A stretch of DNA of 64,000 nucleotides from Tubulanus polymorphus. Its lineage: Eukaryota > Animalia > Nemertea. The stretch lies in the NCBI RefSeq assembly GCF_964204645.1, contig NC_134025.1, positions 6,014,001-6,078,000 of the forward strand, in the 5' to 3' direction. Under the pieces are notes generated by a model that saw only the letters and a list, made by a program, of their open reading frames with translations, made no database searches and was not told where the DNA came from. This document shows, piece by piece, positions 25,001-31,000 of this stretch; the stretch's first letter is position 1, and every line of letters begins with the position of its first letter. Both the position numbers and the translations under genes were made by a program.

Positions 25001-28000
25001 CTGCTTCATTAGCATGAAATAAAAATAACAGTTTCATTCGTTTGATTACTTCTTTATCTTGTCATTACAGTACGGACGACCTAGCTTCATGTCTGGCGGA
25101 CAATACGCACCACAGGTAATATTCATTAAACATATTCCATTTTAGAATAAATACATTGTTTGGAATCTTTTGATATTGTTTGGCACCGGTACACGTATCG
25201 ATTTATTGAATGTTGTGTGTTACAGAAAATCGGCGCTGGCGTCAATCCGATATCAAACCCACGTCAGACTGCATATCAGGGTAGAATGCAACAAACTGCT
25301 CAGTACTCTACTGCTGCTAGTGACCGCAATCAAGAGGCGGCACAAGCTCTGAAAGCAATGCTAGTCAATGGAGAGGTAACCTAATTACAACATCTTGATG
25401 AAAGAAAGTATTTCATTAGACTAAAAATAATCATTTTATATGTTCTACTATAGGAAGGGAAATCAGATGAACGAGGAACAAAGAGGAAACATGAAGATGA
25501 TGACAATGAAGAGGAGAATGAACAGGATAAAAGTGATGAAGTCAGATTGTGGGAAGATGGTTGGAAAGAAAGATACTATGAGAGCAAGTTTGGAGTCGAT
25601 TTAGATGATACTAAATTCAGATATAAAGTGGTATGTACTCTTCTGTATCTTGCTGAATATTGAGCAACCTGAATTTACTTACTAGTCACCTATCATCGCC
25701 ACTATGATAACCATACCATATTGATGAAATATATTTCAATTCTTAGGCAAATGAATATGTTCTGGGTTTGTGTTGGGTATTACGCTATTATTACCAGGTA
25801 AGTTCATCAATAATTTATCGTAATAAATGATCCTTAAGTCAATTTATCTTATAAAGTTTTGTAGTTCGTTGATAATGTATTTTGAATTCTATATTTCAGG
25901 GTTGTGCCTCCTGGAAGTGGTATTTCCCTTATCACTATGCACCCTTTGCATCAGATTTTGTCAACATAGCAGATTTGAAAATTGACTTTGCCTCAGACAC
26001 TGAACCGGTAAGATTCGCTTTTCAAATGTCATTATTGAAAGAAAGAAAATTGTTGTATGAAGCCATTATTTTGAATTCTCTTTCAGTTTAAACCATTGGA
26101 ACAGCTGATGGGAGTGTTTCCAGCAGCCAGTAAAAAACATCTTCCCCTTACGTGGCAAACATTGATGGAATATGAGGTATGAAACAGTTCACTTGAAAAC
26201 TCCATCACTGTAATTTACTGGGTCAATTTTCTACCATTAGGTCTATGCCATTTTGGGACCATGCCATTGGTAGTTTTGAATGGTTGTTATTTTACCTGTT
26301 TTGTTTGACTCTGATTTCAGGATTCAGAAATCATCGACCAGTATCCAACAGATTTCAAAATCGATCTAAATGGCAAGAAATATGCCTGGCAAGGTATAGA
26401 AAAGGACTCTTTGCAACGGAGGTGATTTCACATATTTAACATATTTTCATGTTCGGGCTTATTCATTGTAGGCGTTGCCTTATTACCGTTCGTCGATGAA
26501 AAACGTTTATTGAAGGCATTAGAATCCGTATATCCTGATCTCAATCAGGATGAGAGTATGTATTGAGTTAGTAGGCATGAAGCCAACTGTAATGATTTTA
26601 CACTGGCCAACATATGATATGTGTTAATCACAGATTTGCTAATGAATTGTTTTACATCTAGAGTCGCGTAATATTCGATCTAGCGATAGATTGTTTGTAA
26701 GTTGTAAACATCCGGCCTATCCACTGCTTGAGGCGCTGTATGAAGGGGAACAGATCGTAGATCCTGTACATATAGATCCATCTCGAACTGGTGGAATGTC
26801 CGGAACTGTATGGTGTGATGAAAAAGCAGTAATGCGTAGCAGGTAAATAGAAATTATGGCTCTCATTTCGGCTACCGTAGATCAAGATGGACAACAAACA
26901 ATAGCCATTATCTACCCTACATTTCAGAGTTTATGAAAGTCCTATTCCTCACATGCTGAAACCGTTACCAAACAATCAAGTTATCAGGTACACTTAACAA
27001 AAACTTTTAAAATCTTAGAATAGCACATTTTAATGTCAGTGATTTTAATTTTCAAATCTTTCTCCATTTGCAGTGTTCACTTTCGTGATCCAGAATTCGC
27101 GAAGGGTTATCTCTTCCCCGCGAGAGTCCTGCCAGCTGCTAAGTAAGTTATGTTCATGTTCAATATGCACTCATTGATTTGAGGTTTTGCATGTGTATGC
27201 CTTCGATTTAATGATTCCACTTGAGAAAATTCATTTCTTCAGTTATGCAACAATTTGATAAGGGATTTAAATGCATTCCTAGTAAGAGCATATTCTATTT
27301 TATTATGGCATTTCTCACCGCAATCCATTTTTCTTAAAGATAATCTTTCTTTTGAATGATGTTAGTTTTTGATTATTCATGCACTGATATATACATTTAG
27401 TATTGAGGGCTGTGATATTGTTATTATGAATACGCAGTATGATATGTATGGTATGAAATCATTTTCAGATTTCCAGCTAAAGCTCTAGGTTCAGATGGTC
27501 AGCTTTTACGTTATAAACATCGCTGCTTATATGGAGGCTATCCATTAAATTTCTACCGTGCTATGCAGCCCAAGTTCCCATTATATCATCCCCTGTACCA
27601 GAGGTAGACCTGGCTCTTACAATCACAAACAGAAGATCTGTTTTTTGTAGAAATTTTGTTTATTTTAGAAACCTATTTTTAGCCAACTTGGCACTTAAGT
27701 CCCAGTGGGCTATTGCATTCACTATTGTCCGTCCCACTGTCCATTTGTCGGATAGATGGAATCCAGTTAAATTTGGAAGTTTTGAAGATACTTCAATGGA
27801 TTTATTGGTTTGGTTTGTTACATGTATCTACCCTAGACACATCTCCAGCTCTACTCAATGACTGGCAGCCACTGTTCGCCTAATTTAGCACTTTTTGTGC
27901 ATTGATTACTGTATTTGTTTATCAAGGGGTGTTGAATATTGTAATAATCAGATTGTCAAGTATTTACACCAAGTGGGCATGGTGTTCCTGGACCGCTAGT

Positions 28001-31000
28001 TCTGTTGAGTGCCAGTGAAAGCCTTACTGACACTTAAAGTAATTCTAATGTACATCAAGGATGATATTCCACAATTGTAGGACTTTGAACCCAGTTCCAG
28101 ATAAAGTGAATATATGTGCAATATCTGAGTGTCAAATTTTGAACCACATCTCATTACGAATCTAGAATTCTGAGATCCAAAAGTGAACAACAGTTGGAAC
28201 TGGGTCCAGTAATGTATATGTCTTACAATCTGAAGGAAATCCTTGAGTTTCATTCTCAAAATATGTAATTATAATGTTTGCAGTTATGTGGAAATTCCCA
28301 TATTCTGTTTGCTGTTTTACTGTATTAACATAACAGTTCTATACTTTCTTATTCATTCGTTGATTCCTATTAGTTATAATAGTTAACTAACAATGCTTTG
28401 TATTTTCATCGCTTTAATCAGTGAATTACGATATCTGGAATGAAACATTTCAGATTCCCCGAAAAGACGTTAAAGCCGGAAGATTTCCAACAAGGACGTA
28501 ACTGGCGACCTCAGATTGGTATGTCTCGTAACAGTGGGTACCGTGGACGAGGTTCATTTGATTCGAGCACAGGAAAACGTTTCATCCGGTAGGCCTACGT
28601 GTTTATTTCAATACATTCTCCAAAACTGAGAGAGAAACTGATTCCAAGGAAAAACGTCAATATCTTCTTGTATGTTACGTAAAAAAGCATGGTTTTCATT
28701 CTTGTTCATAGACACAATATTGAGGGACAATACAACAGTATACCACCTCCAGCATCACTAACAGGACAAAGTAAGTTTCAATGTATTCTCACTGTATTTA
28801 GGTCAGGTATTAGGTTTGCGTTGATGTTTGTATTTGCGAGTAGTTCACTGTATGCTTGCGACATCTGGTGTTCGTTATTGGAAACAATTTTCATTTGAGT
28901 TTTGGTAGATGACGATATAAGAGTGATTTTCGAATATCTTGATATATGTTCATATTTTCTACAACTGGAAATCATCGAGTAGAATATATGAATATTGATT
29001 CTCATTGAACTTGGTGCAAATTCTGATTATGAAGTGCCAACAAAAAGAATTGAAAAGAAAGAACTTAATGACTAAAAATACATGGCTGGCCACATCATAT
29101 AATTCTATGTTTTTTTTCTGGATTCCTTTGTTCTCTTGAATTATCGTTTTTATCGTCATAGTTCATTTCAATTTGTTTTATTTGTTTCGTGATGTGTGTA
29201 AAAAAGTTTAGAAAAAATATAGCCTCAGGAAATTCTCTTTTAAAACGCATATGATTGCGAAAAAATATTCCTCATGATTCTGCTTGATATATAATGAATT
29301 TAGAATCGCAGGTGTGATTGAAAAGAAACCAGCGGGATAGGCAACTTGATTCTTAAACGCAGCGCGAGTTTGTTCGAACTAAAGTTGTTTATTCTTGTTT
29401 AATAAGGATTATTATAAAATTATTAGTCCAAGTACACTTCACTCGAATCATACATGAGTACAATTCAATGTAAACGCCGTAGATAGCTTTTGTCGCAGTT
29501 TACAATATATGTATTTCAACTTTAATATTGTGTGACAGCTACTCTGCGTGTATCCTTTCTGAAATTTGCCGACTTGTATTTAGGAAAGCTTCTGTACATG
29601 ATTCTCGCTAAGTTGCGTATTGTTTCATAAGAAATAACTTCGCATTCATTACCCGCATGTAATGAATTCTTTTCTACGTATTTTTGAATGCGAATGACGT
29701 CAATGAAAACCAGGTGCGTCGTTCACTGGTGAGCTGCAAAAAGTTTCAAACACTGCGCTGCACTGGGTTCGATTTAGATCCTGGTACACTGAATGGGCTC
29801 GGTAATCCCAGGGATATACAGCGCGGACTATAGCCGCGTTATATCAACCTAGCTCCATTTTTCGTTTCGGGGAAATGTTTTTCAGACTTCGCCTTATTCT
29901 TCGGCTCATTTAGCGGCGCTGTACAAAAAGCTGCGGGCTGCGAACGCTTGGTCTTTTATTCTCAGCGGGTACGGTTGTTCTTTAACGCCGGTTTTCCTGT
30001 TCGGATTGGGGTATAATTGGGTCGGCGGGGGGCGCGACCGACGACAATGCAGAGGTGTGTGGCACCGAGCTATCTTGCCTTTTCGTTTCACACCACGCTG
30101 GCATTGTCGTGAGAACTCTAGCTGAGCTCGCGAGCAATTTCGACAAAAGCGGCGCTTTTCTTCTATTTTTCGAATTACATTTTTCATTCCGTCTTTATCA
30201 CTCGAAGCAAGTCATTCGGCTTTGAGCACGGAAATCGACGTAAACAATAATTTGTAATGGTATACTGTTATTAATTATGTTGTATTGAACTGTAGCCCGA
30301 GGCACGGATCTCGCTATAGAATAGGAAACCCCTGCCTGGTTGATAGATGCTTTAATACACTCTAGTTGTGAATAAACATAATCAGTCAAGGGTGCTTACA
30401 TTTATGATTTTCAACATGAGATAAATAAATTGCACGTATTCATATCACTTAAAGCGTCCTAAGTGTGAAATCATCCGACAGAAATGATTGACATGTTACT
30501 GTGTAACACAGAAAATTTAAATATCCTCCATTAAGCAAAATGCAGGACCCAGTTTGATAGACTGGTATCATCCCGGTAGTTAACTCAATTCAATTTCAAT
30601 TTCAGTTAACCCCAGGTTAAAGATAATACCAGTCCATAACACCAGCGCCAGAAGTATAAATCTGGCTAAATATTAGAGATTCAAGATACATACAGAGTAC
30701 AAGATTCAATAATGTTATTTCTAGAGTGTTTATATGAGGGCTTTTGATTACAAAAATTGGATATTTGTTCATATTTGTCACTAACAAAGAAGCATACGTT
30801 GCAGCTATTAGTTATGTGATCAGAATATATGTCGATATTCAGCAGTTTTTAAAATATTTCATGGACATATATGAAATAGATGGATAGATGAGTGTCTAAA
30901 TCCGTTGCACCTGTGCTTAGCGAAATATTACTAATGATTTTATCGATATGATATATGAATACTTCGTGTAATATTTCAAGTGCTATTGTGCGCGTTGTAG

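Follow-up and report, generated by a model that had tools for sequence, protein, structure and literature searches.

The gene for the exoribonuclease XRN2, which terminates transcription by RNA polymerase II and processes nuclear RNAs into their mature forms, was examined in a 64,000-nt stretch of the genome of the nemertean Tubulanus polymorphus (contig NC_134025.1, forward-strand positions 6,014,001 to 6,078,000; the window, in whose own numbering all coordinates are given). A preliminary description of the window had proposed that an unannotated stretch in one XRN2 intron (candidate exon A) and the annotated exon downstream of it (exon B) form a pair of mutually exclusive duplicated exons. 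A conserved upstream exon matched one protein at 100% identity, P0001 (XP_074643566.1, 989 amino acids, named "5'-3' exoribonuclease 2-like"), which identified the host gene. P0001 carried PF03159 (XRN_N) at residues 1-255 and PF17846 (XRN_M) at 326-801, shared 62-64% identity with the XRN2 homologues P0002-P0007, and had Xrn2/Rat1 as its best solved-structure matches; judged by its sequence, the host protein is an ordinary XRN2. The features of the locus are as follows.

22018..58666, plus strand: XRN2 gene, 29 coding exons, 989 amino acids, placed by protein mapping
27074..27142, plus strand: exon 24, constitutive, upstream of A, ending in phase 2
27469..27603, plus strand: candidate exon A, 135 nt, absent from the annotation, phase 2-2, with an open frame and codon usage of the coding type
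27670..28001 (ends approximate), no strand assigned: high-copy repeat in the A-B intron, depth in thousands, many loose ends
28164..28189, plus strand: intronic stretch complementary to 27074-27099, duplex of -29 kcal/mol, a lead only
28434..28456, plus strand: predicted hairpin over the AG of the B acceptor, 10 bp, about -9.8 kcal/mol
28454..28588, plus strand: exon B, exon 25 of the annotation, coding for residues 791-835 and seen joined to exons 24 and 26
28712..28770, plus strand: exon 26, the downstream exon

The intron between exons 24 and 25, which contains both A and the high-copy repeat, measured 1311 nt versus 73-513 nt for the preceding 23 introns.

Exon-like character of A and its relation to B

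The coordinates first given for A and B, their lengths of 135 nt, AG and GT ends, phase 2-2, open frames and both peptides were all correct. Splice matrices were built from XRN2's own introns and a codon model was trained on XRN2 exons 1-23; because the training set was one gene, the exon scores of A are rough. The acceptor and donor of A scored 8.4 bits each, mid-range among real sites; 1.1% of 1520 decoy AGs scored at least as high as the acceptor and 0.4% of 1996 decoy GTs at least as high as the donor. The acceptor of B was the weakest of 28 (-1.4 bits). The codon score per codon was 0.129 for A and 0.116 for B. None of 3000 open base shuffles (-0.29±0.13) matched the score of A, its two other forward frames gave -0.36 and -0.38, and the best windows of 2/111 plus-strand and 4/144 minus-strand intronic open reading frames (ORFs) equalled it. 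No reverse ORF of 30 amino acids spanned A. The synonymous-codon component of the score was not significant alone (p 0.19), and GC content per codon position was 0.55/0.39/0.34 in A versus 0.55/0.41/0.34 in the coding sequence. When hidden exons that keep the frame were sought in 33,679 nt of XRN2 intron, A ranked first of 23 candidates with a score of 23.0 (next 12.5), in comparison with 16.4-50 for the real internal XRN2 exons, which were mostly in-sample. Similarly, A was the top of 48 candidates of the same length (22.4, next 15.4), and B scored out-of-sample reached 13.0.

Weak AGs lay at 27437 and 28421, 31-32 nt upstream of the acceptors of A and B respectively. Splicing to either one would bring an in-frame stop within 7 codons, making a shared cryptic or poison acceptor possible.

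We found that A and B shared 8 of 44 ungapped residues (F1, P2, K4, L6, R18, G22, Y29, R30), exactly as the preliminary description had counted, versus 2.5 expected from shuffles (p 0.002). Nucleotide identity was 45/135 (p 0.015), distributed over the three codon positions as 18, 15 and 10 of 44; positions 1 and 2 taken together were significant (p 0.007), with p 0.14 when counted from codon 7 onward. The two strands hold 6446 AG sites other than that of B, and of these the A site had the acceptor context (-35..+8) that best matched that of B (41.5, next 36.0). A 7/8 match to the donor followed exactly 135 nt after the A acceptor, such donor matches numbering 41 in 128 kb. The splice contexts had been called near-identical; the likeness is partly acceptor consensus, because TTTCAG closes 12 of the 28 XRN2 acceptors and, once this hexamer and the exon were left out, the A-B acceptor similarity was equalled by 79/6459 AG sites and by 19/378 pairs of real acceptors.

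Homologues were then used to weigh the shared residues. From 78 loci we obtained 35 distinct homologous segments, duplicates, segments containing stops and segments with at least 30 gaps having been dropped. Eight columns were conserved in at least 30 of the 35, and A retained four of them (P2, L6, R18, G22). A equalled B at 4/8 conserved columns versus 4/36 others (p 0.026). All 35 segments were B-type, and B is the annotated form. This bears out the view that the second copy is typical of XRN2 (LKPED, WRPQxG) and that the first has diverged to a Tyr/Pro/Leu-rich peptide; on sequence grounds, B is the ancestral XRN2-type copy. A and B are moreover neighbours of similar length with the same phase and splice type and no in-frame stop, the properties by which mutually exclusive exons are recognised.

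It is improbable that A has nothing to do with B and is a chance exon-like stretch, or foreign coding DNA, whose length and ends coincide with those of B by accident. Such an origin would agree with the lack of detectable local DNA homology between the exon bodies or the flanking introns (p 0.4-0.9), with the modest intronic similarity that is left once consensus is removed, and with the finding that 20/197 plus-strand AG-135-GT stretches are open. It fits poorly with the first rank of the acceptor match, the donor match at +135, the enrichment at conserved columns and the coding bias. Moreover, A was single-copy in the DNA-like run X1, one contig of which crossed it unbroken at a depth of 34.7, and no Pfam family was found for A alone or B alone. 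Rfam gave 0 matches, as did a PDB sequence search with B alone. An ESM Atlas lead, in which hypothetical clusters stood at 0.92 with 142-153 shared features and 14-17% of the members carried RVT_2, was rejected as weak. Taken as a whole, the comparison suggested that A is likely an old, diverged tandem duplicate of B with weak homology.

Neutral decay of such a duplicate was simulated under 8 settings with assumed rates, at 20,000 runs each. A copy that was still intact with at most 50/135 identities occurred in 0-7 of the 20,000 runs per setting; A, if a duplicate, would therefore have been selected as an exon for the greater part of its history, and the simulation does not distinguish present use from recent silencing.

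Splicing of B and the proposed use of A

None of the 5 runs listed is on record as RNA, but contigs of run X4 nonetheless showed GT..AG joints across XRN2. One contig of 1456 nt joined 27142>28454 and then ran on to exon 26 (28588>28712), which establishes a B form that leaves A out; this first junction was among those that the preliminary description had proposed to check. Joints using A (27142>27469, 27603>28712, 27603>28454) were absent from the 9 listed between 26600 and 29000 in the contigs of this one sample, and no X4 contig lay over A; rare forms are lost from contigs, and the lack of such joints there does not prove that A goes unused. Run X5, which bears the same species label, yielded 1 piece, which lay in the repeat. 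It had also been suggested that failure to use the A donor would give a truncated isoform without the RGG tail. The stop exists, but one follows B as well, and since read-through stops are common to 7/8 of the phase-2 donors of XRN2, the stop is uninformative on such an isoform.

Between exons 24 and 26 the frame stays open with A, with B, with A and B together and with both skipped. The A-B intron is 850 nt long with ordinary GT-AG ends that lack the U12 donor pattern. Three hard-wired routes to exclusivity are set out in a survey of human clusters (Hatje 2017, PMC5740500): a donor-branch distance of <50 nt, a U2/U12 mismatch, and a frameshift on joint inclusion. None of the three applies to A and B, because of the length and ordinary ends of the intron between them and because 135 is divisible by three; the choice between them would thus fall to regulation. 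According to the same survey, these routes are absent from most human clusters too, and one exon is often dominant while the other is tissue- or stage-specific. The open frames of the joint and the doubly skipped forms, and an intron that leaves joining unblocked, would suit a live cassette, in which A is spliced before B, or alone and also with B, so that the pair is not mutually exclusive and a 45-residue insert is placed at the end of the core with the conserved motifs of B, missing in A, retained. We consider this quite unlikely, in that the exact length and register shared with B suit substitution better than insertion and no A-B joint was seen.

Since the better acceptor, that of A, is the one skipped, we infer that A is repressed by default. 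RNA structure offered some leads. Of 29 acceptors compared, that of B had the most stable predicted hairpin, a stability also reached at 2.3% of 3183 AG sites. A duplex between 27074-27099 and 28164-28189, which would loop out A, appeared in both the minimum-energy and centroid folds and ranked first when that query was paired with 2132 windows; after correction it was not significant, 2/60 shuffles and 4/35 other 1.8-kb windows being as good. At the splice sites of A and B, four in all, local folding gave z values of -1.0 to +1.5.

Based on the equal length and phase, the open frame, the strong splice sites and coding bias of A, and B-only splicing in one run, we favour, at a probability of roughly one half, the reading that A is an old tandem duplicate, kept by selection as an exon, which serves as a minor, tissue- or stage-restricted substitute for B, the form seen. 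A tandem duplication of exon 25 would have given rise to A, and continued selection would have kept it as a coding exon. In some tissues or stages A would substitute for B rather than be included together with it; by default it would be repressed, through proteins or RNA structure, and the weak, hairpin-covered acceptor of B would likely be helped. The swap would exchange residues 791-835, at the boundary of core and tail.

Several observations weigh against this reading. A-B identity beyond residue 6 (4/38, p 0.17) was not significant alone, and tests of homology past this point gave p 0.14-0.21. A relative score of the WebScipio type (BLOSUM62, gaps -10/-2) was -0.04, above shuffles (p 0.03) and below the 15% of self-score that is the WebScipio default (Pillmann 2011, PMC3228551). 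K7, P8, D10 and P19, each present in 30-35 of the 35 homologues, are absent from A, and all of the segments aligned are of the other type. Two reverse frames of A were as coding-like as the forward one (0.125 and 0.209). No convincing docking site common to A and B was found, no strong partner being common to both acceptors or both donors (-18 to -24 kcal/mol). The sole spliced contig over the locus, from one sample, skips A. The RefSeq protein carries B, in a cluster of 1 member, and protein searches with the A peptide, at 44 residues a weak query, gave no match among 1.84 billion representatives, a set in which A-type isoforms would be hidden by representatives of the B type.

The XRN2 proteins P0002-P0009 and P0011 were B-type, no match to A was obtained among the 78 homologous loci (best E 1.1), and the loci that cover the region were not split at the exon-25 boundary. 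One may ask whether A was formerly a working alternative exon and is now silent, a pseudo-exon retired so recently that decay has yet to set in. The skipping of A in the transcript seen, the lack of an A form in the RefSeq cluster and the protein searches, the loss of four near-invariant residues, and the high-copy repeat about 70 nt past the A donor would all accord with retirement. The splice sites, frame and codon bias of A are nevertheless all intact, and the spliced evidence is a single data set of contigs that drop rare forms; we regard retirement as unlikely.

Alternative exons that arose by tandem duplication are a familiar arrangement. As characterised in PMC3228551 and PMC5740500, mutually exclusive members of this kind are adjacent, equal in length, phase and splice type, and open, with one of them dominant, and A and B resemble them in these respects; they differ in that their similarity is below the 15% cut-off, in that no steric, U12 or frameshift lock is present, and in that A is a candidate. 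A second likeness is to exons Ab and 3 of U2AF1, another RNA-processing factor, in which, according to PMC5224494, the dominant exon has the poorer splice signals and the better-looking exon is repressed. Unlike the XRN2 case, where A is known from sequence alone, both U2AF1 exons are there described as expressed and conserved in vertebrates. The claim of a mutually exclusive pair was sustained in part: the gene is XRN2, B is typical of it, and A is a probable, live-looking diverged duplicate, but exclusivity and the use of A stand as proposals.

Predicted effect on XRN2

The host protein resembles known XRN2/Rat1 enzymes (XRN_N, XRN_M; PDB 7OPK, 5FIR, 3FQD; PMC9512700), with B encoding the point at which the core gives way to a disordered tail. 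It differs from them in the candidate duplicate, since the homologues seen were uniformly B-type and no duplicated exon was reported there in the literature searched. No duplicated XRN2 exon was found in a literature search outside of which lay subscription papers and preprint supplements. XRN2 was likewise absent from the main and supplement text of two human catalogues, PMC5740500 and PMC8373072, whose supplements are possibly incomplete. The remark that no XRN2 isoform switch had been described at this position agrees with the search, which found none at the core-tail boundary.

Since B encodes residues 791-835 and the Pfam XRN_M match ends at residue 801, a swap would affect the last 11 residues of XRN_M, which align with a C-terminal helix of the fungal enzyme, together with the first residues of the disordered tail. 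In a model of the B form the predicted local distance difference test (pLDDT) score was 77 at 791-800, 62 at 801-810 and <50 from 817, with no helix at 795-805. In the alignment to 7OPK, counted back from residue 858, D10 and F11 of B stand opposite D849 and I850. In the fungal Xrn2, according to PMC9512700, I850 and I853 belong to this C-terminal helix, which lies behind alpha-1, the mobile ratchet helix. In A, a Tyr/Pro/Leu-rich stretch replaces the K-P-x-D and R-P-Q-x-G motifs and the Arg/Gly/Ser stretch of B. The predicted A form would thus differ in the segment where the core passes into the tail, with no change to the active site or to the RGG-rich tail, and any effect on the speed or partners of XRN2 is conjecture. 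A complex prediction for core residues 1-790 with the A peptide scored 0.00 and weighs neither way.

If A is live and regulated, the animal would have two XRN2 "torpedo" nucleases that differ behind the alpha-1 ratchet helix and at the start of the tail, a splice switch for speed, processivity or partners; we put this forward tentatively, as a doubtful proposal, and such a switch would possibly be set by the long-range RNA helix and the acceptor hairpin. Use of A would provide a natural variant without the near-invariant K-P-x-D and R-P-Q-x-G beside the mobile ratchet helix, making their role testable, and A and B would represent a duplicated exon diverged past the reach of standard predictors. 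A silent A would be a minor curiosity of one genome.

Other features of the gene and the window

The last three introns of XRN2 measured 19.8, 5.6 and 4.1 kb (28771-58468) versus about 100 nt for most others. A 28-nt micro-exon, exon 27, lies at 48583-48610, flanked by long introns of this 3' part. Another AG..GT stretch of 28 nt, at 52912-52939 on the plus strand, agrees with micro-exon 27 in length and phase and has fair splice sites (score 15.4). The two share 8/28 bases and 0 residues, and the resemblance is probably chance. High-copy repeats, at 27670-28001 and near 39164-39827, were present in the contigs of the spliced run too.

Just upstream of XRN2, at approximately 17736-19900 on the plus strand, lies an intron-split gene, the first stretch of which matched ArsS, an arsenosugar-biosynthesis radical S-adenosylmethionine (SAM) protein (TIGR04167, E 3.7e-21); the match, for the one stretch scanned, was far below the whole-protein cut-off. 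This would be an ArsS-like gene in an animal. Broken reverse-transcriptase ORFs (PF00078) at 2339-4734, plus strand, probably represent a decayed element of the long interspersed nuclear element (LINE) type.

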